From IMG/VR virus record IMGVR_UViG_3300023174_000140, positions 12,759-76,758 of that record: DNA of 64,000 bases; one strand, 5' to 3'. Below, piece after piece: positions 5,620-19,892 of this stretch (position 1 is the stretch's first letter; every line of letters begins with the position of its first letter). Origin of the DNA: a virus. The notes beneath the pieces are model-generated. The model saw nothing but the letters and a program-made list of their open reading frames with translations. It had not been told where the DNA came from and made no database searches. The position numbers and the translations under genes were made by a program.

Positions 5620-5773
5620 ATATATGAGCGACATTCCAATTGTAACAAGCAAAAGTAAAATAAGATGTTTTATAGAAGCTATGGCTATTACTATTATAGC
5701 TTTAAGTGGATGGATTGCTTTTGTTTATTTTATTTACTTGACAGATTAACAAAATAAATATATATTTATATTT

Positions 5774-5994: not shown

Positions 5995-6029
5995 CTTTAC
6001 TTATTTTTAATTTAACTTATATTTAATAG

Positions 6030-7133: not shown

Positions 7134-7546
7134 GTCGCAAATTGTCAAAGAAATCAGTGATAGGATTGAGGAATATAAAGGTCTGCAAATTGATCACGAC
7201 AATAACCAAGATGTTGTGCATGAACTAAATAGCGTAATTAATGAACTAGAAAATATATTGGAATGGATTAATGAGTAATGCACCTTTATATTTTGCTATT
7301 ATATTAAGTATTGTTTTTGCTGTTTATATATATTTTAGCTACAATGAATAAGTTATTTTGTATTGAAATACTACAAGAGAAACCAGTAATATCATTTGAT
7401 GAATTACTATTAGTTAAATATGAAATAGATAATAGTGAAATAAGAGTTGATTAATAATAAATAGATGATAGCAGTATAGTGATTATAGAATATATATTTT
7501 AATTTTGGGCTATTGACATTAAACTAATTTGGTATATTATTAGCCT

Positions 7547-7999
7547 ATGAAGCTAATTAATACTACCTCATATTGTTCTGAAAAGTTAAAAGAAATTATT
7601 AAATGGTGCTTGCCCCAAGGATTGCACCTTAAAGATATTAGAAAAATAGACTTTGGTAATACCAAAATTGGTTGGCATGGCAGAGCATGGGGAAGCATGA
7701 GGGTGCATATTGCAGTTCCAAATTATTCTATTTATAAAAAGCCTTATAAGAGTGGAGGGTTTAGAGGATATTTACCAGTTAAGAGTTATAGCTGGGAAGA
7801 ATCATTAGTAGAATTAGTTGCCCATGAAGTAAGACATATATGGCAATACAAGAAAGATAAGTTCTATCATGGTATTAAAAAGATAAGAAAATATAATATG
7901 GGTACTAGGGCTAAATTAAGTGAAGTAGATGCTAGTTTATATGCTATTAGAAAGATAAGAGAATATAGAAAGAGTAGTATTAAATTTAATTTGGTTTGA
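7547..7999 (+). CDS. HEXXH zincin-like metallopeptidase-fold protein
   Basis: LVAHEVRHIWQY plus a downstream E (SEVDA). Confidence 0.65.
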   Translation: MKLINTTSYCSEKLKEIIKWCLPQGLHLKDIRKIDFGNTKIGWHGRAWGSMRVHIAVPNYSIYKKPYKSGGFRGYLPVKSYSWEESLVELVAHEVRHIWQYKKDKFYHGIKKIRKYNMGTRAKLSEVDASLYAIRKIREYRKSSIKFNLV

Positions 8000-8000
8000 C

Positions 8001-8075
8001 TTAAGTAGTTGATTATTATATATTTACGTATCGGCGGAGCCCGCGTGCGTAAATCCTTGAATATCAGCACTTTAT
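8001..8075. repeat. 75-bp bipartite palindromic element, copy 1 (extra half-site at 8095-8121)
   Basis: Half-sites start at 8001 and 8049 (48 bp apart); GC-rich 21-bp spacer. Confidence 0.85.
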
Positions 8076-8172
8076 AAAAAATTATCTTAGGATACGTAAA
8101 TCCTTGCACAACATTATCTTATGACATGAAAAAAGTTCTTGTCACAGTTTAAAAGTGTGGTATGATTAACAT

Positions 8173-9030
8173 ATGGCTAGAACAACAAAACCCGCTCAAA
8201 GTGTATACGATTTCGATATACATCAAGAGCCACTCCTCACAACCGACGGCAAGAGGACAGGATACTTCGGGATGGTACGCCGTGATACCCCCGAACCCAT
8301 GACACTCGGAGTTTGCACCGAGCAGTATGGTGTGGTGAAGAATGCAGACCTTGTGGAAATGGTCGAAGAGTCGCTGGCTCAGAACAGCATGCTCATGAAT
8401 CACACTTCTAAGAAGTTCGTGGTTCGTGATGGTGCTCGTTTCTACGCTAGCTATGACTTTACTGACTTCAAGACTGAATTGAAGCCAGTTGGCAAGCGTG
8501 CCAAGGGAGACATTCTTGGACTGCGGTTGACTGTGAATAACAGTTATGATCGCTCCAGCCGTGTCTCGTTAACCCTCGGTTTCCTCCGTTTGGTTTGCAC
8601 CAACGGAATGAAATCGTTGACCAAGGAGTTCAGCATGACGAAACGCCACACGTTGGCCGTCAATCTGGATTTCATTGGTGATGCGTTGGCTAACGCTGTC
8701 TCCAGCGTTGACAACTCTGTAGCAATCTTCAATAGGTTGGCGCAGAAGGCAATTACTGACGAGCAGGGTTTGACCTTGCTCACCAAGTTGGAAGAGAAGG
8801 ATGTCATCTCTGCTAAGGTGCGTGAAGGCATCGAAGCAGTCTGGCGGAACCCTTCTTACGAGGAAGATACTGACCGCAACCTGTACAATTTGTACAATGC
8901 GTCAACTCAGTTCTTGACTCGCAATGTGGCGGATGAACGCTATGAGTATAGCGAGCGCATCAGCACCGACCTGCTCAAGGTCTTCAGCGGAAAAACCCGT
9001 GATGAAGAGCTCTTGAAGTTGGTTGCCTAA
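8173..9030 (+). CDS. DUF932 family (LGT_TIGR03299-like) protein
   Basis: Y.VVKN.D...NSYDRSS...RLVCTNGM...NLYNLYNA.T motifs. Confidence 0.85.
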   Translation: MARTTKPAQSVYDFDIHQEPLLTTDGKRTGYFGMVRRDTPEPMTLGVCTEQYGVVKNADLVEMVEESLAQNSMLMNHTSKKFVVRDGARFYASYDFTDFKTELKPVGKRAKGDILGLRLTVNNSYDRSSRVSLTLGFLRLVCTNGMKSLTKEFSMTKRHTLAVNLDFIGDALANAVSSVDNSVAIFNRLAQKAITDEQGLTLLTKLEEKDVISAKVREGIEAVWRNPSYEEDTDRNLYNLYNASTQFLTRNVADERYEYSERISTDLLKVFSGKTRDEELLKLVA

Positions 9031-9049
9031 ACTAAAACGAAACTTTAAC

Positions 9050-9082
9050 AGAGGCGGAGGGCAAAACCCTCCGCTTCTTTTT
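9050..9082 (+). terminator. Rho-independent terminator
   Basis: GAGGCGGAGGG-CAAAA-CCCTCCGCTTC followed by TTTTT. Confidence 0.85.
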
Positions 9083-9100
9083 GCTCAAATTAAAAAATGT

Positions 9101-9175
9101 ATAAGTCGTTGATTATCAAGCATTTACGTCGGGCGAGCCCCCGCATGCGTAAATCGTTATCTATCAAAGGTTTAC
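9101..9175. repeat. 75-bp bipartite palindromic element, copy 2
   Basis: ATAAGTCGTTGATTATCAAGCATTTAC-N21-GTAAATCGTTATCTATCAAAGGTTTAC; TTGACA follows at 9181. Confidence 0.9.
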
Positions 9176-9214
9176 AATTCTTGACATTTATATTATTTAT
9201 GTTATATTTATGAG

Positions 9215-9556
9215 ATGAAAGCCAAACATAAAGTATATTATAATTTACATAAGCATTGTCTTTCTATTATGCTTCGTGGTAAAGTATTAGAGCATAGCAC
9301 AGAATTCTTTTTGAAGGATGTAGAGTTTAGAGTGAGTCAAGCTGGCAGAAACAGAGTATTAAAAGAACAAAGAAAGAATGTTCACGCTTTTGTGTGTGGC
9401 ACTCCAGATGATGGATGGCCAATAGATCAAACTGAAAGAAAGGTTACCTATAATCCTTATAAGTTTAATAGTTTTGTTTATTCTGATACTCTTGAGCCAG
9501 TATATAAAGCTAAATGGGTTGGAGTTATTAATCGTGATATTTTTGTCTTGAATTAA
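9215..9556 (+). CDS. conserved phage hypothetical protein
   Basis: VYYNLHK...F.VSQAGR.RVLKEQRKNVHAFV...VTYNPYK motif, familiar from other phages. Confidence 0.75.
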   Translation: MKAKHKVYYNLHKHCLSIMLRGKVLEHSTEFFLKDVEFRVSQAGRNRVLKEQRKNVHAFVCGTPDDGWPIDQTERKVTYNPYKFNSFVYSDTLEPVYKAKWVGVINRDIFVLN

Positions 9557-9723
9557 TCTAAAAGTATAGTAGAATTATCTAATGGAAATCACTAAAGCCA
9601 AAAAACTAAAGGAGGGTGGCTACGCACTATACGCAGTTGACCCTAAAACTAAAACCGAAACCCAAGTTGGATATATTGGAGAAAATCTGACTTTGGAAGC
9701 GTGGCTTCCTAAAGGAGTTAAAA

Positions 9724-10137
9724 TTGAAAATTCTTGAAGAATCTTTTACTAGCAGAGGCTTTAAGTTCACGATGATTGGTCGTGATGGAGATGTTGCAAT
9801 CTATAAAAAACAATTAGATGAAGTAGACAGCGAAGCCTATAACTATGAAGTTATCGCTATCAAACGCCACAATGGTTACGAGATTGCAGGTGTGAAGATG
9901 CCTCCTGCTGAAATGTATCCAAGCGATAGTCAATGGGGTGATTGGGCTTTCACTTGCTCTACTCGTGAAGATGCAGATAAACGATTTGTTCAACTAAAAG
10001 AAAAACTATCAGCTTATGTTGCCACAGCAACTTTGCCTAATGGTGAGAAGCGTGGTCGTGGCCGTCCTCGGAAGAGTAATGTTCTTCCAGCACCTCCAGC
10101 AGAAATTCACTTGACACCAGAACAATTAGCAGTATAA
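9724..10137 (+). CDS. hypothetical protein with AT-hook
   Basis: KRGRGRPRK near the C-terminus. Confidence 0.7.
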   Translation: MKILEESFTSRGFKFTMIGRDGDVAIYKKQLDEVDSEAYNYEVIAIKRHNGYEIAGVKMPPAEMYPSDSQWGDWAFTCSTREDADKRFVQLKEKLSAYVATATLPNGEKRGRGRPRKSNVLPAPPAEIHLTPEQLAV

Positions 10138-10144
10138 TCCGATT

Positions 10145-10381
10145 ATGACATACAAATGTGCAGTAAGCGGTGAAGCACTTTCACCAGAGAGAGTTGAGGC
10201 TCTGCAAGTCCTCGGCGTTCCAGAGAGTCAATGGACAAAGAAAGAATATAGTCAGACAAAAAAACTACGAGCTGTATATGCAGGTGATGATGGCAGTAAT
10301 GACATCGTGATTTGTGATGCAGTAGATGGTGGCTCTATGTTTGATAATGCAGTAGCATTGGAGGTAGAAAATGAATCTTAA
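10145..10381 (+). CDS. hypothetical protein, leaderless
   Basis: TTGACA..TATAAT-N6-ATG. Confidence 0.65.
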   Translation: MTYKCAVSGEALSPERVEALQVLGVPESQWTKKEYSQTKKLRAVYAGDDGSNDIVICDAVDGGSMFDNAVALEVENES

Positions 10382-10568
10382 GTATATCGTTTTGCGAGAT
10401 GGAGTTCGTGTGAGTGAAGATATGCACTCAAAGATTGAAGATGCCGAGCAAGAAGCGGAGTTTTGGCGTAAAGTCATCCGCTCTTGGCCTGATGGAACGA
10501 AAGTTACCATCAAGAAAATCGGTGGATAACTTCGGAGGCTGACATTGAGCTACGGCTTAGTGTTGATT

Positions 10569-10659
10569 GCTAGGGTCGTCTAACTGGTTAAGACCCACGA
10601 CTTATACTCGTGAAGCTCTAGATTTGAGCGTAATGAAGGTTCGAATCCTTCCCCTAGTA
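10569..10659 (+). tRNA. tRNA with UAU anticodon (Ile, AUA) and long variable arm
   Basis: GCTAGGG/CCCTAGT-A acceptor, CACGA-CTTATAC-TCGTG, 22-nt V region with GCTC/GAGC stem, GAAGG-TTCGAAT-CCTTC. Confidence 0.85.
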
Positions 10660-10921
10660 TGTAAAGCCTTATCATTCAACGAATTATTTTTATTGACTAT
10701 TTCTCTAACTCTTGTATATTAAACCTATGACAAACAAACAATCAGTTCCATTCTATGTGATGAATGTGTTCGGCCAAGATCGAGCTATCATCCTAAACAC
10801 CTCAATCCGTATGTGCACAACCAAAGAGACTTGTTCTCTCAAAGACTTGGAAAATTATGCCAAGGCTTTTGCAGTAGAGTTCTTTCAAGTGCCAAAACCT
10901 TCCAGCTTTCCAGCTAAAGTG

Positions 10922-10993
10922 GGGCAAGTAGTTTAAAGGTGAAACAGAGAACTCATAATTCTCCTAGTGCTGGTTCGAGTCCAGCCTTGCCCA
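10922..10993 (+). tRNA. tRNA-CAU, probably Ile2 (lysidine type) rather than Met
   Basis: GGGCAAG/CTTGCCC-A acceptor, GAGAA-CTCATAA-TTCTC, GCTGG-TTCGAGT-CCAGC. Confidence 0.85.
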
Positions 10994-11120
10994 CTTCTCC
11001 TTCTGCAGATTGGATGCTCAATTCCTATAGTAAGTATTGTGAGCCATCTCAAGAGGACATAGATTGGTATTTTAACAATAAAAGTATTGACAAAAAACAA
11101 AAACAGGATAACATTAAACT

Positions 11121-11507
11121 ATGAAACTAATTAAACAAAACCTCGGTGCTCATTGGGTCATCGGGATTAAAGGCAACAAGGACGAGATTGAGCAGTTCCA
11201 CAATCGAGTCTATAATTGGGGTGGAACAAACGGAGAGCTTCAATGGATGAGTAATGACTTTGCTTATTTTTGGATTACTCTCGAAAAGTTAGAGCGAGTG
11301 ATGTTTAAGTATGTTATGAATGGTATCACAGATAAACTTGGCAAAAAGTTTCGTGGTGCTAAAGGTGGATTGAAAGCAGTTGCGATGAATCGTATTAAGA
11401 ATACTATTGATAATATTCCAAACGAACATTTTGTTCGCACAGCACAAGTGGAGGATATTTATTCCCTCGGAACAATCTCTGCTGAAAAATTAGATAACGA
11501 TAGCTAA
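11121..11507 (+). CDS. hypothetical protein, paralog of 18005..18460
   Basis: Shares YNW.GTNG.L..M and YSLGTISAEK. Confidence 0.75.
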   Translation: MKLIKQNLGAHWVIGIKGNKDEIEQFHNRVYNWGGTNGELQWMSNDFAYFWITLEKLERVMFKYVMNGITDKLGKKFRGAKGGLKAVAMNRIKNTIDNIPNEHFVRTAQVEDIYSLGTISAEKLDNDS

Positions 11508-11513
11508 AAAATC

Positions 11514-11586
11514 CGCCTAGTAGCCCAATGGCAGAGGCAAACGACTTAAAATCGTTATAGTGTCAGTTCGAGTCTGACCTAGGCGA
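11514..11586 (+). tRNA. tRNA-Leu(UAA) with short variable loop
   Basis: CGCCTAG/CTAGGCG-A acceptor, AACGA-CTTAAAA-TCGTT, 5-nt V loop, GTCAG-TTCGAGT-CTGAC. Confidence 0.88.
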
Positions 11587-11596
11587 AAAATTTGTT

Positions 11597-11670
11597 GCTC
11601 CTATAACTCAACTGGAGAGAGTAACAGTTTTCTAAACTGTAGGTTGCAGGTTCGATCCCTGCTAGGAGCG
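11597..11670 (+). tRNA. tRNA-Arg(UCU)
   Basis: GCTCCTA/TAGGAGC-G acceptor, ACAGT-TTTCTAA-ACTGT, GCAGG-TTCGATC-CCTGC. Confidence 0.92.
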
Positions 11671-12073
11671 AAATACTTTCTCTAAATAAAAAATAAAATG
11701 TACTCTATTTATGTGAGAAATATTTTTGATAAATTTGGCGTAGAGTTTTTTGTTTTATTTTTAATGTTAGCGATATCGTGGGGCGGAATACAAGAGATAC
11801 TGAAAATTATAATTACACATCTAAAGTAAGATTTGCCAAATATCTAATAGGATATAATAAATAGTTGAAATATTTCCTAAATAATTGTAATATATATTGA
11901 TATGAAAAGCGAAAATAGATTGAGCAAAATACTTGAGAAAAGAATCTTACAAAACGAAGATCCTAAGACTATTGCTCAAATAGATAAGTTTTTAAATAAT
12001 TTAGAAGTTGTTTTCGTAAAGTGGGCGAAAGCTCATCCCAATTGGAAAGAATCAGAAGAATAATTAAACTGTT

Positions 12074-12148
12074 GTAAGTTGTTGGTTATTAACTATTTAC
12101 ATTCGCGGGGGCTCTTCATGCGTAAGTCGTTGACTATCAACGAGATTT
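12074..12148. repeat. 75-bp bipartite palindromic element, copy 3
   Basis: Half-sites at 12074 and 12122. Confidence 0.88.
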
Positions 12149-12197
12149 AATTTAAGATTTTTCTTGTGAAAAAACAAAGGTATGGTATATTTAACCT

Positions 12198-12464
12198 ATG
12201 AACAAAATCAAAAACGCAATCATATACGCAACCTCATATCTGAAACACTTCGTCCTTTTCCTCTTGGGGCAAAGGTATTTAATCGAATACAAACCCTATG
12301 GTAAGGAGCAGGTTTATACCTACATCATCAGCAAACCCTCTTCTCATACCATCAGCAAGGCAGGGAATAAGCTATTCACTAGCTTCTGCTTTTCTGGTCG
12401 TATGGATTCTGGCGTGAAGCAATTCCGCTATGATCGAATCGCTGGTGGTCTTTCGCCAGTCTAA
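12198..12464 (+). CDS. hypothetical protein, leaderless
   Basis: Promoter directly upstream; terminator downstream. Confidence 0.65.
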   Translation: MNKIKNAIIYATSYLKHFVLFLLGQRYLIEYKPYGKEQVYTYIISKPSSHTISKAGNKLFTSFCFSGRMDSGVKQFRYDRIAGGLSPV

Positions 12465-12485
12465 AAACAGAAAGACATTATAGAA

Positions 12486-12516
12486 AGGGCGAGGCCTAAA
12501 AAACCTCGCCTTTTTT
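12486..12516 (+). terminator. Rho-independent terminator
   Basis: GGCGAGG-CCTAAAAAA-CCTCGCC followed by TTTTTT. Confidence 0.8.
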
Positions 12517-12549
12517 ATTGCAGATAAACAAAAGTATGTTAAGATAGTT

Positions 12550-12767
12550 TTAGTTCTTCGATATCAGAGAAGGTTGACCGCAAGGTTGCAGTTCTGGAAA
12601 GTTTCTAATGGAAACATTAGTTATATATAACGGAACGCCAATACTTCTCTTGGCGAGTCTGACTAACTCCCATAAGAGGATGAACCTGCCAACGCCCAGA
12701 GTCAGAGGCGAAAGAGGAGCAGGATATTCCTTTACGAAATCATGAGCGTAGAGGGTCGAAGAACTAA
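12550..12767 (+). ncRNA. putative large structured RNA (~218 nt) with pseudoknot
   Basis: 12-bp closing stem TTAGTTCTTCGA/TCGAAGAACTAA; GNRA hairpins GACC-GCAA-GGTT and CTAATG-GAAA-CATTAG; CCTGC/GCAGG; TCTGACT pairs with loop AGTCAGA; promoter TTGCAG 12518/TAAGAT 12540. Confidence 0.78.
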
Positions 12768-12943
12768 TTTTTATTACGCCATTTTTCTCTGTGATTGAAA
12801 ACCCAATCTAACAGAGCTTTTTCAAAACCAATATCGTGTCCTGCTTTTTCGCTTTCGAGCCATTTGTGCTTTAGGATTTCATTTCGCTCTTCAATAAACT
12901 TTTTATATAGAGCAGACGATTCAAGTAAACCAGAAACCTTCAT
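12764..12943 (-). CDS. DUF4032-like small protein (59 aa, not in ORF track)
   Basis: MKVSGLLESSALYKKFIEERNEILKHKWLESEKAGHDIGFEKALLDWVFNHREKWRNKN; GTGTAAT starts 14 nt upstream of the ATG. Confidence 0.75.
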   Translation of the reverse strand: MKVSGLLESSALYKKFIEERNEILKHKWLESEKAGHDIGFEKALLDWVFNHREKWRNKN

Positions 12944-12957
12944 ATATTATATTACAC

Positions 12958-13071
12958 CTATTCCCACGGCATCCACATCGTGGCAAACTCTTCTTCGAGT
13001 TTTTCTATTTTTTGTTGTTGTGCCATTTCGTTTGCGAGTTGCTTCAATGCTTTCATATCATCTAAATACAT
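12958..13071 (-). CDS. small hypothetical protein (37 aa)
   Basis: MYLDDMKALKQLANEMAQQQKIEKLEEEFATMWMPWE; GGAG SD and TTGACA promoter on the minus strand. Confidence 0.5.
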   Translation of the reverse strand: MYLDDMKALKQLANEMAQQQKIEKLEEEFATMWMPWE

Positions 13072-13132
13072 ATTAGCTCCTTTGGTTAGTGTTAACTTAA
13101 CATTAACATATTATATTAATTTGTCAATGTTT

Positions 13133-13207
13133 ATATCTCTTTGATAGCCAAGCATTTACGTCGGCAGGGGCTCTTGCGATGTAAATCGTTGATACTCAAT
13201 GAAATTT
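13133..13207. repeat. 75-bp bipartite palindromic element, copy 4
   Basis: Half-sites at 13133 and 13181; lies between divergent promoters. Confidence 0.85.
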
Positions 13208-13246
13208 AAATGTAGACAAAAAACAAAACTCTGATATATTTAAACT

Positions 13247-14086
13247 ATGAAAGTAAACGAAATTATCACCGAAAAATTCATCGAAGCCCTCAACAAAGGT
13301 GTCATCCCTTGGCAGAAGCCTTGGAAAGTTTTTGACCTCTGCAACGGAGTTTCCAAAAAGAATTATAGGGGCATCAATCAATTTTTGCTACGGATGCTGG
13401 CTTCTGATGATTTCTTTTTTACATTCAATCAGATTAAGGAACTAGGTGGGAGAATCAAAAAGGGCGCTAAGTCTCATATGGTAGTTTATTACAAACTCCT
13501 CAAAACAGAAAGCAACAATGAAACCAAAACTTTCCCCATGATGAGATTCTATAAAGTTTTTGGATTGAGTGATATTGAGGGCATGAAGTGGAAACAGCCC
13601 GAAGTTAAGAAGCTGGATTTTTCACCAGTAGAAGAAGCAGAAAAGTTGATTAACAAGTGCGTGATTCAGATTAAACATGGTGGAAGTCGTGCCTGTTATT
13701 ATCCACAGGAACATAAGATTGATTTGCCCCCAAAAGAAAACTTCACCAGCGTTGAGGAGTATTATTCTACAGCGTTCCATGAGATTGGTCACGCTATGCA
13801 CAAGGCTACAAGCGATGAAGTGAAGAATGGATTTGGAACGCAGAATTATAGCAAAGAAGAATTGACAGCAGAGATTTTTGCAAGCCTTTGCCTTAACTTC
13901 TGCGGAATTGATTCGGAAAAATGCTTTAACAATTCTGCGAGCTATCTTTCAAGCTGGCTTCAAGTTTTGAAAAAAGATATGAACTTTATCATCTCAGCTT
14001 CTAGCAAAGCCCAAAAAAGATTTGATGCTTTTATTGATAGAAAAGAAAGCGAAGAGATTCCAGAAGAAGAAGCTGCAACTGCTTAA
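13247..14086 (+). CDS. ardC: ArdC-like antirestriction protein (DUF1738 ssDNA-binding + zincin-like domain)
   Basis: IPWQKPW...YRGIN...TFNQIKELGGRIKKG.K...YYSTAFHEIGH...YSKEELTAE...SASYLSSWL. Confidence 0.9.
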   Translation: MKVNEIITEKFIEALNKGVIPWQKPWKVFDLCNGVSKKNYRGINQFLLRMLASDDFFFTFNQIKELGGRIKKGAKSHMVVYYKLLKTESNNETKTFPMMRFYKVFGLSDIEGMKWKQPEVKKLDFSPVEEAEKLINKCVIQIKHGGSRACYYPQEHKIDLPPKENFTSVEEYYSTAFHEIGHAMHKATSDEVKNGFGTQNYSKEELTAEIFASLCLNFCGIDSEKCFNNSASYLSSWLQVLKKDMNFIISASSKAQKRFDAFIDRKESEEIPEEEAATA

Positions 14087-14149
14087 GTCTCAACGATTTA
14101 CGCAAGCAACCTCCCTGCATATGTAAGTCATTGATAGTCAATGAGATTT
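14075..14149. repeat. 75-bp bipartite palindromic element, copy 5 (overlaps ardC stop)
   Basis: Half-sites at 14075 and 14123. Confidence 0.85.
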
Positions 14150-14198
14150 AATTGTAAAAAAAACTTGTCCCAAAACAAAAACGTGGTAACCTATTTTT

Positions 14199-14834
14199 AT
14201 GTTCAAAAACAAAAAACAAGCCGAAGAGATTGTTGGCACACTCTCAAAACCCTCAAAGATGCCTGGATATGCTTATTCAACGCCCGCAAAGCGTTGTCTT
14301 ATCGGGCAGAAAATGCGGAATGTTGTAGGAAGCATTTGTGCTTTTTGCTATGCTCTTAAAGGGCGTTATGTTTTCCCCAATGTTCAAAAAGCTATGGAAA
14401 AGCGTTTTGCTTCTCTTACCAATGATTTGTGGGTGGATGCTATGACATACTTAATCGGCAAGGTTAAGAATCCGCATTTCAGGTGGCACGATTCGGGCGA
14501 TTTGCAAGGTGTGTGGCATATTGAAAAGATTGTGAAGATTGCAAAGAATCTTCCTCACATTTCTTTTTGGCTTCCAACTCGTGAATATGCTTTCGTTTCA
14601 ACCTATATTGAACAAGGCGGTGAAGTTCCTAGCAATCTTACTATCCGTTTGTCTGCTCTGATGATGGATGGCCCCGCACCCGTAGGAATTGCACAACGCC
14701 TTGGCTTATGCGTTAGCGGTGCAAGCAAGTTAGGAAACTTTAACTGCCCAAGCTCCAAGCAAGGCAACAAGTGCGGTGATTGTCGCAAGTGTTGGGATAA
14801 AAATGAGTTTGCAATCGACTATAAAAAGCATTAA
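14199..14834 (+). CDS. phage gp88-like protein (Cys-rich, radical-SAM-like fold)
   Basis: LSKPSKMPG...C...CAFCYA...FRWHDSGD...WLPTRE...CGDCRKCW. Confidence 0.8.
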   Translation: MFKNKKQAEEIVGTLSKPSKMPGYAYSTPAKRCLIGQKMRNVVGSICAFCYALKGRYVFPNVQKAMEKRFASLTNDLWVDAMTYLIGKVKNPHFRWHDSGDLQGVWHIEKIVKIAKNLPHISFWLPTREYAFVSTYIEQGGEVPSNLTIRLSALMMDGPAPVGIAQRLGLCVSGASKLGNFNCPSSKQGNKCGDCRKCWDKNEFAIDYKKH

Positions 14835-15067
14835 GATGTCTAGATGACATTAATCTTTTTAATTATCCTTGGAATATTATTATCACTATTTATAACATAC
14901 TAAAATGAAAATTGAAAAACTCTTAAATGAAAATCTAGAATCTTTTTATCCTTGGAATGATTCTGATAATCCTCCACTCGACACAAACAAAAGTTTTGTA
15001 GAAAAACAGAGAGAGATTGACGAAGTATTCGAAGGTTGGCGAGCGAGTATGTAAAAAACTTGCTGGT

Positions 15068-15142
15068 GTAAGTCTTTGATTATCAAGGATTTACATCGGC
15101 GGCCTCCCTGCGTGCGTAAGTTGTTGATAACCAACTACTTAC
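15068..15142. repeat. 75-bp bipartite palindromic element, copy 6 (at the convergence of + and - transcription)
   Basis: GTAAGTCTTTGATTATCAAGGATTTAC-N21-GTAAGTTGTTGATAACCAACTACTTAC. Confidence 0.92.
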
Positions 15143-15402
15143 TCACCACATAAATTTTCATCACCAGCCCAGCCAAAATCCTCCATTTGATAACACCCGC
15201 CATTATAGTCTTCGTCAGTTCCATGGCCAGCAGAAGCCATAGCAGAGTCGAAGTCGCCATCCATAGAGTCGTCTGGCTCGTTCGAGGTTTCGGATTTGAT
15301 AGCGCGATCATCTTCGCGCATCTGGTTAAGGATGTCGCGCACATCCAGCGGAGACAGCATATGCTGGCTCATCCACTCCTTGAGAGAGGCTTTGTAGTCC
15401 AT
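15139..15402 (-). CDS. acidic hypothetical protein
   Basis: Probable start MDYKASL (GGAGG SD upstream); DDSMDGDFDSAMASAGHGTDEDY. Confidence 0.7.
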   Translation of the reverse strand: MDYKASLKEWMSQHMLSPLDVRDILNQMREDDRAIKSETSNEPDDSMDGDFDSAMASAGHGTDEDYNGGCYQMEDFGWAGDENLCGE

Positions 15403-15403
15403 A

Positions 15404-15568
15404 TTATTTGACCTCCACAATAGTTTCATTGGAGCCATAGACTCCAGACAACGCATCGAGCATTGCATTAACTTCATCATTGGAATTGATGAAATCAAAG
15501 AACGCATTAGCGTCCGCATAAACTTCCTCGCAGGTTTCCGTCGATAGAGCTGTGATTTCGTTTGTCAT
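15404..15568 (-). CDS. small acidic protein (54 aa, not in ORF track)
   Basis: MTNEITALSTETCEEVYADANAFFDFINSNDEVNAMLDALSGVYGSNETIVEVK; TTGCGC..TACATT promoter just upstream. Confidence 0.6.
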   Translation of the reverse strand: MTNEITALSTETCEEVYADANAFFDFINSNDEVNAMLDALSGVYGSNETIVEVK

Positions 15569-15623
15569 AGATTAAATGTATCACAGATTATTTTTAGCGC
15601 AACATTTATTTTTAAAAAAATTG

Positions 15624-15705
15624 AATAGAAGAATTGCTAATAGTAAATAGGAAATAGCCTAATAGGAAATAGCTCAATACAAAATAGGAAATCACAATAT
15701 CAAAA
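15624..15705. repeat. degenerate 7-8 bp tandem repeat (AATAGGA)n
   Basis: aatagta aatagga aatagcct aatagga aatagctc aatacaa aatagga. Confidence 0.7.
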
Positions 15706-15730
15706 TGTTATGCCCGATTTATCTTTATGC

Positions 15731-15805
15731 GTAAGTCGTTGACTATCAAGGGTTTACGCGCGCGGCGGGCTTTCTTTTGTAAGTGTTTGATAATCAACAT
15801 ATTTG
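15731..15805. repeat. 75-bp bipartite palindromic element, copy 7
   Basis: Half-sites at 15731 and 15779. Confidence 0.88.
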
Positions 15806-15884
15806 ATCTTTTACTTTCATTCAGGTTTTGTCTAAAAATCGGTTTGGATCTTTTGCTTTCGTTCAGGTTTTGTCGCAAGATCAG
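15805..15884. repeat. 42-bp-period tandem direct repeat (2 copies)
   Basis: GATCTTTTRCTTTCRTTCAGGTTTTGTC at 15805 and 15847. Confidence 0.85.
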
Positions 15885-15889
15885 ATTTT

Positions 15890-15964
15890 ATAAGTTGTTA
15901 TTTGTTAAGGATTTACGCAAAAAACCTCCCTGCATGCGTAAATTGTTGATACTTAGTTACTTAC
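15890..15964. repeat. 75-bp bipartite palindromic element, copy 8
   Basis: Half-sites at 15890 and 15938. Confidence 0.85.
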
Positions 15965-16117
15965 AGCAGGTCTCGAAGATTCAAACAACTCGCAGAAAGA
16001 TAGTAAAAAAATCTTTCACGCAAAAAGTTTTTCTGCTCACCATTTTTCACAGCGAGTCTATAAGTTTTTTTATTTATTTTGAAAAGTATTTTTTTCATTC
16101 GTATTGTTAAGTCCATA

Positions 16118-16300
16118 TTATTTGCTCAACCTTTCTTGTGCATCTTTGAGATATTCAAGAGCTTCTCTGATTGATTCGTTTTGCCAACCTTTTGTATAAG
16201 GTTTGACTGCTTCTAATTTAATCACAGCAACCGAGAGGCAACCTTTTGCCCATCCTTTGTTGTGTGCTTCATTCATTATTTTTTCAACTTCAATTTCCAT
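16118..16300 (-). CDS. hypothetical protein
   Basis: Probable start MEIEVEK with AGGAG SD. Confidence 0.6.
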   Translation of the reverse strand: MEIEVEKIMNEAHNKGWAKGCLSVAVIKLEAVKPYTKGWQNESIREALEYLKDAQERLSK

Positions 16301-16301
16301 A

Positions 16302-16721
16302 TTAGTCTCCTTTATATTGTCCACCGCTGTTATATGCTTCAGAGATTCCAGCAGAGATTCTTTTAGTCAATTTTACTTGTTCTAAAAGTTCTTCGGTTGA
16401 TTCAACTTTTTTAATGTCGAAGTATTTTCCAACACTCGTCAAAAGTTCATATCCACCCGAAAGAGTCCAAAGCATTAGATTCTTTAAGAAAGGTAGGTTT
16501 GAGTAATGGCTATGCTCTTTTTCATCAGCATACCAGATTTCGGTTTCAGTAGTTTCACCACCGATTCTCCAAAACGATTTATAGGAAACTTGGATAAAGT
16601 CTCCTGCTTTGATGTTGAGCGAACGGAAAGCCTCAACTGCTTCTTTTTCTTTGCGAGCATTTTCAGCCCTAGCAAGTATCATTTTTTCTCTGAATTGTTT
16701 ATTCTTTTCTTTTGTTGTCAT
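16302..16721 (-). CDS. hypothetical protein, leaderless
   Basis: TTGACA..TAGATT promoter on the minus strand; lone half-site at 16762-16788 upstream. Confidence 0.7.
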   Translation of the reverse strand: MTTKEKNKQFREKMILARAENARKEKEAVEAFRSLNIKAGDFIQVSYKSFWRIGGETTETEIWYADEKEHSHYSNLPFLKNLMLWTLSGGYELLTSVGKYFDIKKVESTEELLEQVKLTKRISAGISEAYNSGGQYKGD

Positions 16722-16774
16722 ATCTATAATCTATCACACTTTCCTATTTTGTCAAGCTATTAAATTTCGTTGAT

Positions 16775-16963
16775 TTACAACGACTTAGGACTTTTCCCAT
16801 TAAGTTTTGCCTTTAGTAAGGCGTGAGCTTTAGCCTTTTCAGGATTATTCTTTTTCCATTCAGACCATCGCTTTTTACGATTAGCCCAAAGAGCTTGATT
16901 TTTTTCTTTGCGTTGAATTTCCCATTCTTGGGAAGTTAATTGTTTTTTATTATCATTATTCAT
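16775..16963 (-). CDS. small basic protein
   Basis: AAGGA SD; stop lies within the lone half-site. Confidence 0.55.
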   Translation of the reverse strand: MNNDNKKQLTSQEWEIQRKEKNQALWANRKKRWSEWKKNNPEKAKAHALLKAKLNGKSPKSL

Positions 16964-16964
16964 T

Positions 16965-17240
16965 TTATTTATTTTCCTTTATTAGTTTAGCGTTATTAAG
17001 GTTGATAGTTCCAACCTTATCTTTATCTTTACCTTCTAGGAAGGTTACAACCGCAGTATTTGCAGAAGTTTTGTAAGAAACTTTTACTAGAGTTCCTTCG
17101 TAAAGGTATATTTCACCAAAGTAAGTTGGTGTATTGTTAGAGTTAGTAATGATTACTTCTTCAGAAGCATTCATATTTTTTCGCATATTTTCACGCATTT
17201 GTTTTCGTTGAAAATTCCAGTTTATCATTCTATGAGTCAT
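16965..17240 (-). CDS. hypothetical protein
   Basis: ORF in the minus-strand early block. Confidence 0.6.
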   Translation of the reverse strand: MTHRMINWNFQRKQMRENMRKNMNASEEVIITNSNNTPTYFGEIYLYEGTLVKVSYKTSANTAVVTFLEGKDKDKVGTINLNNAKLIKENK

Positions 17241-17313
17241 TTTATTTTTTTCTTTCTTTGTTATTTGTTATCTTTTATCTTATGTATATAGTTTACCACA
17301 ATTCCTGCAAAAG

Positions 17314-17502
17314 TCAAATTATTTCTTCAATTTGTTTTTCGTTGATTATCATAGAGTTATGATGAGCAACTTCAACTTTGTGTTCATATTTCGAGAAACT
17401 TTCATCGAGTCTCTTTTGGGATTCTTCAACGGCTTTTTTGAGGTCAGCCGAAGCTTTGTCTAAATTTCCGAGGAGGATTTCTAATTTTGTTTTTCTTTTC
17501 AT
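17314..17502 (-). CDS. small coiled-coil protein, paralog of 18541..18690
   Basis: K.E.L..NL.KAS.DLK.A...LD...KVE..H shared with the paralog. Confidence 0.7.
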   Translation of the reverse strand: MKRKTKLEILLGNLDKASADLKKAVEESQKRLDESFSKYEHKVEVAHHNSMIINEKQIEEII

Positions 17503-17551
17503 ACTTATAATCTATCAGATTTTAGGATTTTTGCAAGATATTTTTTCATTT

Positions 17552-17626
17552 AAATTTCATTGACCATCAACGATTTACGCACGCAGGGAGCCCGCATGTG
17601 TAAGTCGTTGATATTCAATTACTTAC
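17552..17626. repeat. 75-bp bipartite palindromic element, copy 9 (overlaps hydrolase stop)
   Basis: Half-sites at 17552 and 17600. Confidence 0.9.
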
Positions 17627-18000
17627 AACTTGTAAAACTTGTGGTTGTGTATTGTAGCCACTAGCCTTGCATTCCTAGACCACCTAGGAGCTACGCTAAT
17701 GGCGTGGTAATGGTTCGCACCCCTTACGATATCGGGCATCTGCTGATGAATCACAAGGTCTGCGAGGTAGAGAGCGTTCTTACCTTGTGGTGTTGATAGT
17801 AGTTTCTTTTTGGTAGCTTCACTTACTCCACCATTCCAGAAGCTAAACTGCTTTGGTGATAAGCATACTTCTTTAGCAGATTGATGACGCTCTATCATCC
17901 TTGTTTGGATAACGCTAGCTACACCAGCCATACCTTCCATACCTTCACCCCTAGCTTCACCCAAGAGCGTTAATGCTACAATGAATAGTTCTGCTGTCAT
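17623..18000 (-). CDS. SleB/Hydrolase_2 family cell wall hydrolase
   Basis: EARGEG..GM.GVA.VI..R...QFSFWN...GANHYHA....P.W......I.NH.FY. Confidence 0.85.
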   Translation of the reverse strand: MTAELFIVALTLLGEARGEGMEGMAGVASVIQTRMIERHQSAKEVCLSPKQFSFWNGGVSEATKKKLLSTPQGKNALYLADLVIHQQMPDIVRGANHYHAISVAPRWSRNARLVATIHNHKFYKL

Positions 18001-18004
18001 AGGA

Positions 18005-18424
18005 TTAGTCCCTTCCGTTGCTTACTGCACCGCAGTAGTCAGAAGGTTTCTCTGCACTGATAGTTCCAAGGCTGTATCCCTCGGAGCTACTCGCACCCCA
18101 TAGGAAACAGGTTTGCCCCATAGCATCCACGATGCTCTGTGCTTTTGCCTTGGCAAGGTCAAGCAATCCACCCTTACGCCCCTTGGCGTTAATCTTATTC
18201 ACGAGAGAGTGAAGAGCGACCTTGGTAAGAGCGTGCATCACATCATCGGGATGAGCGTAGAAGTAGAACGCTTTGCCGTTGCCCATATCGTGCAACTTGC
18301 CGTTAGTTCCTTCCCAATTATATATAGAATTGAAGAAGTGATTAATTTGTTTTATGTTTCCTTCGAGGAGGTAAGCATTGTTTTCGCCGAAGGTTTGGTA
18401 ACTGATTTTTAGGTTTTGTTTCAT
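18005..18424 (-). CDS. hypothetical protein, paralog of 11121..11507
   Basis: Probable start MKQNLK directly after TTGACG..CAATAT; shared motifs with the paralog. Confidence 0.7.
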   Translation of the reverse strand: MKQNLKISYQTFGENNAYLLEGNIKQINHFFNSIYNWEGTNGKLHDMGNGKAFYFYAHPDDVMHALTKVALHSLVNKINAKGRKGGLLDLAKAKAQSIVDAMGQTCFLWGASSSEGYSLGTISAEKPSDYCGAVSNGRD

Positions 18425-18540
18425 AGGTTGTATATTGCCTTTCTGTTTATGTTTCGTCAAGTATTATTTTGCTGTTACCATACCATAGATGCCCACGAGG
18501 ATGCTTCCAATGGTAAGGGTGAAGATGAGGGTGTCGATAT

Positions 18541-18690
18541 TCATTTAGTCATCGCTTCCTGATGGATAGCTTCCACCTTTTGAGCGTGAGCGTCAAGGGT
18601 TGCGATGGCCTTTGTAGAGGCATCCTTAAGGTCTTGGCTAGCCTTGTTGAGGTTGGCAATCAGTTGTTCGTATTTGCTTAATTTCTTCAT
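18541..18690 (-). CDS. small coiled-coil protein (49 aa, not in ORF track)
   Basis: MKKLSKYEQLIANLNKASQDLKDASTKAIATLDAHAQKVEAIHQEAMTK; upstream promoter and half-site resemble those of 17502. Confidence 0.7.
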   Translation of the reverse strand: MKKLSKYEQLIANLNKASQDLKDASTKAIATLDAHAQKVEAIHQEAMTK

Positions 18691-19166
18691 ATAGGTAATC
18701 TATCACAGAATAGATTTTCTGCAACATATTTCTTCATTTAAATTTCATTGATAGTCAACAAGATACGCATGGACATACCCCTACCCCCTATTTTATATTC
18801 TTAATTTCTTAAACATAAAGGATGGCTGGCTTCATTGTGGTTTTGATTTCGCATATGGGTACCCTATTTTTGAAAAGATGGATTGATTTTAATTTTGAAT
18901 TAATGCGCGGGGGTACTATCTTCAATCTCCACACTATTTATAACTATTACTTATTTATACCTTATCTATATATACCCCTACCCCTTTTCTTAAAATCTAT
19001 TAAAATTCAAACCAATACAATAACCTTAAAGGTCAAAAATTCCGCTGGGCTATTTTTATTATAAAGTGTTTTTAATATATAGTTATTTTGGAACTATAAT
19101 ATCTTTGCCTTCTACTTTGCGTCCATTAAATGTGTGTGATTTGCCGCTAGCCATATATACTCTATA

Positions 19167-19184
19167 TTACACAATATAGTGTAA
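19167..19184. promoter_or_regulatory. divergent pair of GTGTAA putative late promoters
   Basis: TTACAC (19167) and GTGTAA (19179), each followed by an ATG on its own strand. Confidence 0.6.
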
Positions 19185-19194
19185 ATATAAGCAT

Positions 19195-19419
19195 ATGAAA
19201 ATCAATTTAAAACTAATATCATTAATAACTATCCTTGGTACTTTATTCTACTTCTTAGGTCATAAAAATAAAAACAATAGTTCAATCGAACAAATAGAAC
19301 AAGTAACAATAGTTGATAAAAAAACAAATAGCGCAAATTTATCATCGCCCAAGGTTTATATTTCTGTTCCGCCAGCCCAAAATGGTTTAGGCATAGGAAA
19401 TAATTGGAAAAGCAAATGA
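19195..19419 (+). CDS. small membrane-anchored protein
   Basis: N-terminal TM; GTGTAA upstream. Confidence 0.55.
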   Translation: MKINLKLISLITILGTLFYFLGHKNKNNSSIEQIEQVTIVDKKTNSANLSSPKVYISVPPAQNGLGIGNNWKSK

Positions 19420-19892
19420 TTATTCAAAATAAAGAATTAGTAACTCCATTTATCAATAACAATAATATAATCCCTAAGAATTTTGTTATATCTGATACTG
19501 ATTACTTTTGTCCTACATTAGATATGGTAAATATGGAGTTATTTCCTAAATATTGGACATGGCTTCAATCATTAAAATTAACAAGATGGATGCATAAATG
19601 GGATTGTGATAATTTTGCAGATGCTTTTAAATTATTTTGTTGTGGATATTATGAACAAGTTATTGAGAGTACTGCAAATGGAATAGCAGTAGGAGTTATT
19701 AACTATAAAGCTAATAGTAAAGCAGAAAATGGATTACAAGGTGGTCATGCTATTAATATAGTTTATATAGATAATGGCAAAAATGATGATGGATCAAATA
19801 ATTTTTATCCAATTTTTGTTGAACCTCAAAATGGAAAGATATATAGATTAAGTCAAGAAGAGTTTAATAGCATTTGGACAGTTTATATATAA
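19416..19892 (+). CDS. papain/transglutaminase-like cysteine protease-fold protein
   Basis: WDCDNFA...GHAINI...VEPQNG (Cys-His-Glu). Confidence 0.7.
   Translation: MIIQNKELVTPFINNNNIIPKNFVISDTDYFCPTLDMVNMELFPKYWTWLQSLKLTRWMHKWDCDNFADAFKLFCCGYYEQVIESTANGIAVGVINYKANSKAENGLQGGHAINIVYIDNGKNDDGSNNFYPIFVEPQNGKIYRLSQEEFNSIWTVYI

Follow-up and report, generated by a model that had tools for sequence, protein, structure and literature searches.

Class I activator sites, for example, that of CRP at -61.5, and UP elements are familiar components of sigma-70 promoters. Several groups of dispersed sites and repeats are also relevant to the locus described here. Promoter-early stem-loops (PeSLs) are found in T4-type phages (Arbiol et al. 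2010, PMC2839356; Comeau et al. 2014, PMC4122927), and stoperators, which end elongation, are repressor sites present in large numbers over a phage genome (PMC9283540). The BIME/RIP elements of E. coli and the Correia elements of Neisseria are IHF-bearing repeats of cellular genomes (PMC3184786). IHF itself has the consensus WATCAR-N4-TTR, with binding sensitive to the TTR element, and its classical sites lack symmetry, one half of the footprint bearing the consensus (bioRxiv 10.1101/382655).

The window, that is, the whole stretch of DNA analyzed (64,000 nucleotides of the IMG/VR record IMGVR_UViG_3300023174_000140), comes from an uncultured freshwater phage. It contains an early anti-restriction region whose small genes are set apart by a repeated 75-bp element; no published description of the element was found in the literature.

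Anatomy and distribution of the element

All nine copies claimed in the earlier note were found at the starts listed below, each with two 27-bp imperfect palindromes that start 48 bp apart (9 of 9) and flank a 21-bp spacer, which is GC-rich in a genome of ~30% GC. The entire element is indeed a quasi-palindrome, and a loose palindrome (GCAGGG.CCCTGC) is also recognizable in the spacer. The degenerate pattern used in the earlier note yields 11 matches compared with 0.76 expected (100 shuffles, largest 3); under leave-one-out PWM scoring, the nine copies reach 31.6-88.4 bits, and there were no matches of 35 bits or more in 887 kb of shuffled loci. The window and 21 relatives together supply 80 distinct copies, in which conservation is symmetric and position-specific: ten columns are invariant, and the 3-bp centers and N4 gaps vary freely. 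The consensus of the 27-bp site is YAA-N4-TTGA-N3-TCAA-N4-TTR. Two arms of 12 bp enclose a variable center of 3 bp, in place of the 10+7+10 layout originally proposed. Neighboring genes are arranged in tandem, convergently or divergently, and a module of roughly 75-130 bp repeats about once per kilobase. The elements (given without strand) are:

8001..8075, element 1, the most degenerate copy (leave-one-out 31.6 bits), starting 1 nt past the stop codon of gene 7547-7999, with the DUF932 gene downstream
9101..9175, element 2, after the DUF932 gene and its intrinsic terminator (9050-9085); right palindrome center to ATG 9215, 53 bp
12074..12148, element 3, beginning 10 nt past the stop of 11902-12063; right palindrome center to ATG 12198, 63 bp
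13133..13207, element 4, between divergent promoters, the left palindrome facing the minus-strand one; right palindrome center to ATG 13247 (ArdC), 53 bp
14075..14149, element 5, its left arm containing the ArdC stop codon (14084-14086); right palindrome center to ATG 14199 (GP88), 63 bp
15068..15142, element 6, the best copy (88.4 bits), between convergent genes with a promoter on neither side; right arm overlapping the stop codon of minus-strand gene 15139-15519
15731..15805, element 7, left border of an 84-bp mini-cassette
15890..15964, element 8, its right arm adjoining the 3' end of minus-strand gene 15961-16116
17552..17626, element 9, left palindrome center to minus-strand ATG 17502, 63 bp; right arm overlapping the stop of minus-strand gene 17623-18000

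The four lone half-sites reported previously are of unequal quality. Those at 16762 and 18740 score above the shuffle threshold, that at 10661 falls below the PWM threshold, and that at 8095 is poor, with 2 of 13 self-complementary pairs, and for the most part directly repeats the beginning of 8049. The first three are:

16762..16788, minus strand, lone palindrome (17.5 bits, shuffle maximum 15.2) on the promoter side of minus-strand gene 16302-16721, without spacer or partner
18740..18766, minus strand, lone palindrome (17.4 bits) followed by a degenerate G-rich spacer; center to minus-strand ATG 18690, 63 bp
10661..10687, plus strand, degenerate lone palindrome directly after tRNA-Ile, one mismatch to the pattern; center to leaderless ATG 10727, 53 bp

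A scan of the whole 76.7-kb record with a symmetric single-palindrome PWM, the threshold being the top score in 20 shuffles, placed all 19 palindromes within 8049-18766 of the window, in agreement with the claim that there are no copies elsewhere. The same element is present on at least 21 related IMG/VR phage contigs, and in four whole related records, one of them a 171.9-kb genome rated complete, all copies lie within a single stretch of 10-13 kb. Element copies occupy orthologous positions across relatives.

In an unbiased scan of the window's record and 21 related loci, neighbors separated by at most 150 bp are exactly 48 bp apart in 103 of 123 cases. In more distant lineages, the spacing is 46 bp (L036, L074) or 42-43 bp (L070), with different GC-rich palindromic spacers of 19, 16 or 15 bp. 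Because of these lineages, the fixed spacing, and the view that geometry is conserved while sequence drifts, hold within the clade and break down across the wider family, and the argument from helical phase between the two sites is weakened.

The short length, inverted-repeat symmetry and many intergenic copies of the element would fit a miniature inverted-repeat transposable element spread through intergenic regions, and the Correia elements of Neisseria also carry an IHF site and promoters (PMC3184786). However, a mobile element of this kind sits poorly with copies that occupy orthologous positions and are confined to one 12-kb stretch; no case of presence/absence polymorphism of the bare element came to light, the proteins scanned yielded no transposase, and a pattern scan found the element in none of 185,579 species-representative prokaryotic genomes. 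We regard this origin as hardly credible.

Duplex symmetry and promoter register

The self-complementarity of the element led to the earlier suggestion of a cruciform or ssDNA hairpin. Among the 80 distinct copies, the fraction of paired cells is 74.6% for three local hairpins versus 74.0% in shuffled columns, 60.0% versus 63.4% for the spacer hairpin, and 67.8% versus 70.3% for one long hairpin, and there is no compensatory change or covariation for any of these three structures. Selection for pairing is thus unsupported, and because pairing is no better than in shuffled columns, we read the symmetry as that of double-stranded sequence, not of a hairpin, cruciform or RNA. The corresponding alternative, a transcribed RNA or extruded ssDNA acting as a terminator, RNase III site, REP-like mRNA stabilizer or cruciform, would explain why elements lie directly past stop codons and can form extensive self-complementary structures, and one promoter-side palindrome (12127-12143) does score as a weak terminator-like hairpin. 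Nevertheless, frequent variants disrupt pairs (GAGTTAC opposite GTAAGT), Rfam yields no match for the element, and the GC core is not followed by a U-tract, although ordinary intrinsic terminators lie nearby at 9050-9085 and 12488-12510; such a function is very improbable.

The palindromes are in register with promoters. Among 52 outward leaderless promoters, 17 have the palindrome center 52-55 bp from the ATG and 26 have it 62-63 bp away, so that 43 fit one of two classes, with the -10 hexamer ending at +46 or +56. The promoter-side palindrome therefore has two offsets, exactly 10 bp apart; -35 boxes are weaker in the 63-bp class (4.0 vs 4.8 matches of 6). Examples are:

9181..9208, plus strand, sigma-70-type promoter TTGACA-16-TATATT; its mRNA is leaderless because the ATG is 6 nt past the -10 hexamer
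12164..12191, plus strand, promoter TTGTGA-16-TATATT with extended -10, 63-bp class, leaderless
13213..13240, plus strand, promoter TAGACA-16-TATATT, 53-bp class, leaderless, driving ArdC
16728..16755, minus strand, promoter TTGACA-16-TAGATT, adjoining the lone palindrome at 16762

Other sigma-70-type leaderless promoters in the window (e.g. 5738, 6863, 7513) are without elements, and the element is therefore no general promoter requirement.

The arms of the palindromes match WATCAR-N4-TTR exactly in 101 of 320 cases and with at most one mismatch in 203, compared with 0.02% of the record's 13-mers, a match spotted post hoc among many known consensus sequences; both T's of TTR are invariant. 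Together, symmetric conservation without covariation, the two offsets 10 bp apart and the IHF-like arms point to the two-site nucleoprotein target predicted in the earlier note, which also offered that the element may be an operator/activator pair for the adjacent promoters or a set of sites for host nucleoid proteins. We infer that the elements are, quite probably, protein-bound duplex sites coupled to promoters. Each would comprise two double-stranded sites for a symmetric (dimeric), sequence-specific protein, held at the fixed 48 bp by a stiff GC-rich spacer. Given that the 27-bp site consists of two back-to-back IHF-type half-consensus sequences, a host-supplied bending protein of the IHF/HU type would be the most likely binder, an assignment we make tentatively; an unrecognized phage protein is the alternative. 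The perfect dyad would require a homodimeric IHF relative or two alternative binding modes. HU/IHF (PF00216) is absent from all five phage records.

At a cassette start, the outer arm of the nearest palindrome passes into an A/T-rich tract followed by a promoter of the sigma-70 type with an extended -10, placing the palindrome center at about -53 or -63 from the leaderless start, on the same helix face. From there, the predicted protein could influence RNA polymerase in the manner of an upstream activator or an architectural element, and transcription reading through from the neighboring unit may be hindered as well.

Alternatively, the sites could be operators of a phage-encoded repressor that shuts off early anti-defense cassettes and blocks read-through, resembling L5 stoperators or the operators scattered over P1. 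The sites are spread between the genes of a single regulon-like region, to which they are restricted, they show dyad symmetry without covariation, and several cassette genes belong to the mycobacteriophage L5 families gp82 and GP88; promoterless sites, such as 15068 between convergent genes, would suit a roadblock. However, no HTH, RHH or other regulator was detected among 44 early proteins (Pfam, PHROGs), and the sites lie upstream of the -35 box (-53 or -63), in an activator-like position rather than over the core promoter. Stoperators, furthermore, are asymmetric and orientation-biased, whereas the sites here are symmetric, and because no integrase was found, there is no sign of a lysogenic state needing silencing. 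We consider repression of this kind unlikely.

Probable cassette borders and homologous exchange

The probable protein-binding sites would mark the borders of independently transcribed early cassettes (ArdC, DUF932, GP88 and similar), each of which has its own promoter. For the composite as a whole, in which paired sites for a symmetric protein are coupled to early promoters and set cassette borders, with shuffling as a by-product, we see about an even chance. The genes and the mini-cassette (without strand) concerned are:

8173..9030, plus strand, DUF932 protein gene (cassette), 50% GC
13247..14086, plus strand, ArdC-type anti-restriction protein gene (cassette), with ArdC-N and zincin peptidase domains
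14199..14834, plus strand, GP88 family protein gene (cassette)
15806..15889, 84-bp mini-cassette of two 42-bp tandem units between two elements

The elements are favored sites of gene swap, movement or loss among related phages. Of 115 internal homology ends, 41 are no more than 10 bp away from an element, with elements covering 9% of bases, and among non-genic ends the share is 41 of 79 versus 33% expected; HSP ends and element copies are non-independent in these counts owing to the relatedness of the genomes. Over half of the breakpoints in homology fall outside elements. Thus, the idea that breakpoints between relatives lie inside the elements stands as enrichment and fails for any single position: change-points spread over columns 4-13, 16-29 and 31-45, with a cluster at column 28. 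Such scatter fits homologous rather than site-specific exchange. The element at L009:6112 is a hybrid of the window elements at 15731 and 15890, the mini-cassette unit recurs at other element sites in the relatives L009 and L096, and paralogous cassettes are present within the region. Recurring every kilobase or so, the module is therefore also a substrate for homologous exchange, through which related phages would have had cassettes duplicated, relocated, exchanged for others and lost.

Core sites of site-specific recombination or gene capture, whether for a tyrosine or serine recombinase or as integron attC, would have two inverted arms around a small variable center and could bound cassettes of either orientation, as the elements do; the palindrome/spacer border is the exact end point of some lone palindromes, and the cluster at column 28 would also fit. 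Yet neither PF00589 nor PF00239 was found in the window's record and four relatives, among them a complete 172-kb genome, although both profiles match in most control genomes. Change-points are scattered over element columns, each cassette has its own promoter, and what is conserved is the sequence, not the structure, the reverse of the situation at attC. Site-specific recombination is, accordingly, a highly improbable explanation, and its tyrosine-recombinase form is not supported, given the lack of a recombinase profile match, the 12+3+12 anatomy and the scattered homology ends.

The breakpoint enrichment and hybrid elements are also what a PeSL-like composite without a dedicated binder would produce, namely, an attenuator in the form of a GC-rich stem-loop, combined with an upstream promoter region and serving mainly cassette shuffling, with copies kept alike by repeated homologous exchange and gene conversion. 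The succession of stop codon, GC-rich core of G- and C-runs, A/T-rich tract, sigma-70 promoter and gene start follows the PeSL order (PMC2839356), and more distant lineages have different GC-rich palindromic spacers. Homogenization alone, however, cannot explain invariant positions alternating with free ones in 80 diverged copies, and the exact 10-bp, two-class promoter register is left unaccounted for; spacer-hairpin pairing is under the shuffled expectation, and the core lacks a U-tract, although ordinary intrinsic terminators occur in the region. We therefore judge a composite without a binder to be rather improbable.

Comparison with known systems

Like PeSLs, the elements are repeated intergenic composites of a large lytic phage and lie in a hyperplastic region; in both cases, the motif is where relatives differ by insertion, deletion and replacement (PMC2839356, PMC4122927). 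Both share the order of upstream stop, GC-rich run segment, A/T-rich tract, sigma-70-like early promoter and small accessory gene. PeSLs, however, consist of a promoter and a terminator stem-loop variably placed relative to it, and carry a Shine-Dalgarno sequence, whereas here the conserved part consists of two 27-bp dyads, spaced a fixed 48 bp from each other and located upstream of the promoter, a selected stem-loop is unsupported, and the genes are leaderless. Moreover, the phage is not T4-like, because its large terminase is ~25% identical to the nearest cultured relatives.

Class I activator sites likewise have a dyad centered upstream of the -35 box, at offsets one helical turn apart, and, as with UP elements, an A/T-rich tract is adjacent and the -35 boxes are weaker at the farther offset. 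Here, unlike at class I sites, a second site lies 48 bp further upstream, and elements are also present without a promoter.

With the stoperators of cluster A mycobacteriophages such as L5 (PMC9283540), the elements share many copies in short intergenic spaces at transcription-unit borders. Stoperators, however, are single asymmetric sites of ~13 bp, oriented with transcription and genome-wide, and are bound by the known monomeric immunity repressor of a temperate phage.

In the fit of the arms to WATCAR-N4-TTR, with TT invariant, the elements resemble IHF sites, but two IHF-type consensus sequences are fused here into a perfect dyad. BIMEs, which join GC-rich palindromes and an IHF site in a dispersed intergenic repeat, and Correia elements, which join an IHF site and promoters, are comparable in composition (PMC3184786). 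The layout is the reverse of that of BIMEs, with two dyads flanking the GC-rich part. Unlike these cellular repeats, the elements, at which binding is predicted, were found within 12 kb of phage genomes and not in cellular ones, and the phage that carries them is itself without an HU/IHF gene.

Distribution and anatomy of the element

Inspection of the window bore out all nine 75-bp copies reported in the earlier note (8001, 9101, 12074, 13133, 14075, 15068, 15731, 15890 and 17552, named here by their starts), each with two 27-bp palindromes around a 21-bp GC-rich spacer and all within 8001-18766. The degenerate pattern proposed there gave 11 matches against 0.76 expected by chance, and the nine copies scored 31.6-88.4 bits with a leave-one-out position weight matrix (PWM), with no shuffled DNA reaching 35 bits. 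Of the four lone half-sites listed in the same note, two are genuine (16762 and 18740), a third, at 10661, is degenerate but lies in the right place ahead of a promoter, and that at 8095 is doubtful. The claimed confinement to a stretch of ~11 kb holds for the window's whole source record (76.7 kb, ~50% estimated completeness, with the window at bases 12759-76758), where neither a pattern search nor a symmetric single-palindrome PWM found copies outside window 8001-18766. We found no published description of the element in the literature.

A pattern scan followed by PWM scoring identified true elements in 21 related IMG/VR contigs, with up to 10 per 15 kb, and 80 distinct copies were aligned (alignment A1). 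When four whole related records were scanned with a sequence-only covariance model, every copy in each record fell within one stretch.

Table. Element-bearing stretch in each of four related records
124.8-136.4 kb: in a 171.9-kb genome rated 100% complete
29.3-42.0 kb: in a 132-kb record
83.9-93.7 kb: in a 102-kb record
29.3-42.6 kb: in a 61-kb record

Among 185,579 species-representative prokaryotic genomes, a stringent two-site pattern, which recalls ~19% of copies and would catch ~88% of ten-copy genomes, gave 4 contig matches, the number expected by chance, and none of these scores as an element. In this respect, the element differs from REP/BIME repeats, which are spread over the bacterial chromosome.

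Ten columns of the 80-copy alignment are invariant and another eight are at least 90% conserved; together they form symmetric blocks separated by variable positions: TAAGT-nn-TTGA-nnn-TCAA-nn-AnTTA(C). The invariant bases include A3, T10, A18 and T24-T25. The GC-rich spacer carries a loose dyad, GCAGGG.CCCTGC. One side of this dyad has often decayed, and the sequence that then recurs, in one orientation or the other, is AACCTCCCTGC. In an unbiased single-palindrome scan, the start-to-start distance was exactly 48 bp in 103 of the 123 close palindrome pairs. The 48-bp spacing, described previously as invariant, is thus fixed in this clade without being universal, because more distant lineages use 46 bp (loci L036 and L074) or 42-43 bp (L070), with different GC-rich spacers. 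The palindromes themselves are the same in these relatives, with spacers of 19, 16 or 15 bp (L070:3535-7071, L036:4480-5235); L070 also has two directly abutting palindromes, 27 bp from start to start. The spacer-length variants of L070 and L036 would help to identify features that change together with the length of the spacer.

The island and its promoters

The island, that is, the element-bearing stretch, has a GC content of 38-41%, versus ~30% elsewhere, and its genes are small and mostly monocistronic. It encodes DUF932, an L5 gp82-like protein, ArdC (an ArdC-N domain with a zincin peptidase), GP88, a SleB-like hydrolase and many ORFans, together with four of the five tRNAs of the window. 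Elements are found between tandem, convergent (15068) and divergent (13133) genes, and at several (14075, 15116, 17600) the incoming gene ends with a stop codon that overlaps the element.

The DUF932 gene (8173-9030) has 50% GC in a phage with 30% GC. Its cassette, the unit between elements, is represented in public metagenomes by more than 90 sequence clusters of 69-99% identity, suggesting that this phage population is very abundant, and a homologue search with the DUF932 protein yielded metagenome proteins only. The tRNA-Ile (anticodon TAT) at 10568-10660 is, with 93 nt, unusually long for its isotype, and this length may reflect an inserted segment or an extended extra arm. Its 3' end is where the degenerate lone palindrome directly begins. 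Non-coding positions 15620-15700, beside element 15731, contain three to four AATAGGAAATAG-like words 17-20 bp apart, which resemble iterons and may represent an origin or a further binding array. Two copies of the repeat ATACCCCTACCCC(C/T)T, at 18775-18801 and 18972-18998 (197 bp apart), lie in the non-coding DNA that separates the island from the late genes.

Related DNA is present in freshwater and lake metagenome runs of 13 studies. No close relative of the phage has been cultured: megablast of window 7000-19000 found no cultured-phage match, and the large terminase is ~25% identical to those of large Bacillus and Clostridium phages.

At cassette starts, the outer arm of the nearest palindrome turns into CAAYGARATTTAAWT, followed by a sigma-70-type promoter with an extended -10. 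The ATG lies only 6 nt downstream of the -10 hexamer, so the cassette mRNAs are predicted to be leaderless. Such a promoter is present in 52 of the 157 distinct outward contexts studied from the window and its relatives. Among these 52, the palindrome centre lies 52-55 bp from the ATG in 17 cases and 62-63 bp from it in 26, two classes that are one helical turn apart. The -35 boxes are poorer in the farther class (4.0 versus 4.8 matches of 6). Early promoters of the same type at window positions 5738, 6863 and 7513 have no element, which indicates that the element is specific to the island.

Contigs from four lake metatranscriptome runs map to 7500-19500 and represent gene bodies of close relatives in RNA libraries. 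Several contig joints begin or end in elements, and three of these carry 21, 28 and 28 intervening letters, consistent with one spacer or with an inner arm plus spacer; the sides of the joints are short and the palindromes repeated, so the placement may be wrong, and contigs do not reveal RNA ends. The highest depth of the region was at 12312-12712; in run X16, the highest summed contig depth (2437) was at window 12312-12767, which coincides with the non-coding stretch past a terminator at 12488-12510.

Symmetry, structure and candidate binding proteins

The palindromic arms had suggested a cruciform or a single-stranded DNA hairpin. We counted base pairs for three explicit structures over the 80 copies and compared these with shuffled columns.

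Table. Paired cells in three explicit structures, 80 copies
Three local hairpins: 74.6% paired; shuffled columns, 74.0%
Spacer hairpin: 60.0% paired; shuffled columns, 63.4%
One long hairpin: 67.8% paired; shuffled columns, 70.3%

Pairing was no better than in shuffled columns, frequent element variants break base pairs, and the GC-rich core is not followed by a U-tract. At the gathering threshold, Rfam detected only the five tRNAs in the whole window and gave no match at the elements. Given the lack of covariation in the 80 copies, the hairpin, cruciform and RNA readings were dropped. Each arm fits the consensus independently, and therefore the symmetry of the element is fully accounted for. 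Symmetry of this kind characterizes sites at which a dyad-symmetric protein binds duplex DNA, rather than an RNA, a single-stranded DNA hairpin or a cruciform. The earlier proposal of a two-site nucleoprotein target gains support from symmetric, position-specific conservation without covariation. Our preferred explanation is two linked sites for a symmetric protein that probably bends DNA, functionally coupled to the early leaderless promoters and marking unit borders. Overall, we consider it likely that the elements are protein-bound duplex sites coupled to promoters.

With regard to the protein involved, integration host factor (IHF) recognizes the consensus WATCAR-N4-TTR, with a 9-bp kink spacing and binding that is sensitive to the TTR (bioRxiv 10.1101/382655). 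The palindrome arm reads (W)ATCAA-N4-TTR, in accordance with this consensus; 101 of the 320 arms are exact matches and 203 have no more than one mismatch, versus 0.02% of the 13-mers in the record, and the pattern of free and fixed positions in the arms agrees as well. IHF sites are, however, asymmetric, with the consensus in one half of a ~35-bp footprint and often an A-tract in the other, whereas the sites in the element are perfect dyads with the consensus on both arms. The likeness is a resemblance, and a binder of the IHF/HU type is a tentative suggestion, rather less likely than not.

The five phage records searched for protein families (G000-G004, the window's own and four relatives) lack the HU/IHF family (PF00216), a further point against a binder of that type, and Pfam and PHROGs detected no HTH or RHH regulator or transcription factor among 44 early proteins. 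The families that were recognized among these 44 are DUF932, L5 gp82-like, ArdC, GP88, SleB-like hydrolase, a RuvB-like AAA+ protein, an Ogg-like glycosylase, a dCMP-deaminase-like protein, MazG and an AT-hook motif. The AT-hook (KRGRGRPRK) is canonical and lies near the C-terminus of a conserved 121-aa cassette protein (9772-10137), the N-terminal domain of which belongs to no family; this protein may bind A/T-rich DNA in the minor groove, and in the ESM Atlas it matched only viral clusters without names. The RuvB-like protein has a RuvB_C winged helix (E = 6e-12); its gene belongs to the early set and lies upstream of the window (L106:1514-2446, in bases of the record), near the genes for the Ogg-like glycosylase (5582-6256) and the dCMP-deaminase-like protein (8525-8938).

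Cassette exchange and comparison with known systems

The window and 14 related loci share homology in separate blocks. Breakpoints at elements, which the earlier note had proposed to look for among relatives, were found: 41 of the 115 internal block ends lie within 10 bp of an element, with elements covering 9% of the bases, and among non-genic ends the proportion is 41 of 79, against 33% expected, counts that do not represent independent events. The single element at L009:6112 matches window element 15731 in its left part and 15890 in its right part; the window carries both, 159 bp apart. The 84-bp unit at window 15806-15889 is found in L009 at the site equivalent to window 17552 and elsewhere again in L096, and both L009 and L020 have other cassettes in place of window 16102-16793. 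Within the island, cassettes 11121-11507 and 18005-18424, as well as 17314-17502 and 18541-18690, are paralogous and in opposite orientations, which points to duplication and inversion between elements.

The 84-87 bp unit consists of two 42-bp tandem repeats (TTCAGGTTTTGTC..AAGATCAG), contains no ORF and is always located between two elements (window 15806-15889, L009:8218-8304, L096:7204-7288). Possibilities include a small RNA, a binding array or weak minus-strand promoters.

The hybrid at L009:6112 suggested crossovers at the spacer centre, but a change-point survey gave no such rule: across 74 junction pairs, homology ends at element columns 4-13, 16-29 (peak at 28) and 31-45. Tyrosine (PF00589) and serine (PF00239) recombinases are absent from the same five records, including the complete 171.9-kb genome; as controls, the searches found PF00589 in 14 of 14 genomes and PF00239 in 12 of 14. 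With no recombinase of either family and scattered change-points, the site-specific recombinase reading was dropped, and with it the suggested tyrosine-recombinase core site. The pattern fits homologous or microhomology-driven exchange between repeated modules, not a site-specific system. Such exchange has been described for the promoter-early stem-loops (PeSLs) of T4-type phages (PMC2839356, PMC4122927).

A more far-reaching reading is that the twin palindromes build a dedicated boundary complex that switches on leaderless anti-defence cassettes and promotes cassette exchange. Its protein would come either from the host, as an IHF-like factor acting as a homodimer, or from the phage, as a new protein; the cassettes would be switched on immediately after DNA entry, and cassette capture and exchange would be actively promoted. 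If true, lytic freshwater phages of a widespread clade would possess an integron-like platform for the acquisition of counter-defence genes, one that works with no recombinase of a known family. We regard this reading as improbable and favour a protein-bound, promoter-coupled element, with homologous cassette shuffling as a consequence of its repetition.

In large lytic phages, fast-evolving counter-defence genes sit in plastic regions, the organization and reshuffling of which are, to our knowledge, understood in detail only for the T4-type phages with their PeSLs. The element adds a second solution with a different architecture, from a freshwater phage clade that is abundant and uncultured: a rigid, two-site module locked to leaderless early promoters, the sequence of which points to a DNA-bending protein. 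If binding is confirmed, the element would be a defined, portable promoter-insulator unit, a marker of anti-defence islands in metagenomic phages, and a test case for architectural proteins shaping expression and modular exchange in phage genomes.

Several known systems invite comparison. The attC sites of integrons keep their structure while the sequence varies, whereas the element keeps its sequence without covariation; furthermore, integron cassettes are promoterless and depend on IntI, whereas the cassettes described here each have their own promoter, and no integrase was found in the five records. Recombinase core sites exchange at a fixed position within a 6-8 bp (or 2 bp) overlap, in contrast to the ends in the element, which scatter over columns 4-45. 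Mycobacteriophage stoperators are asymmetric ~13-bp sites, oriented with transcription and bound by the phage immunity repressor, unlike the paired symmetric 27-bp dyads of the element, and no repressor-like gene was detected among those for the 44 early proteins. There is a parallel with PeSLs, which likewise are repeated intergenic motifs with a sigma-70-like early promoter and an A/T-rich upstream tract, clustered in a hyperplastic region, with the insertion, deletion and replacement breakpoints of relatives at the motif. PeSLs contain a stable stem-loop serving as a terminator or attenuator; the core of the element is GC-rich and loosely palindromic (60.0% paired, versus 63.4% in shuffled columns) and has no U-tract behind it. 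PeSLs belong to T4-like myoviruses, from which the present phage is distinct, with no cultured nucleotide match and a terminase ~25% identical to those of large Bacillus and Clostridium phages. The element is a variant of PeSL-like phage regulatory cassettes and of IHF-bearing intergenic repeats.
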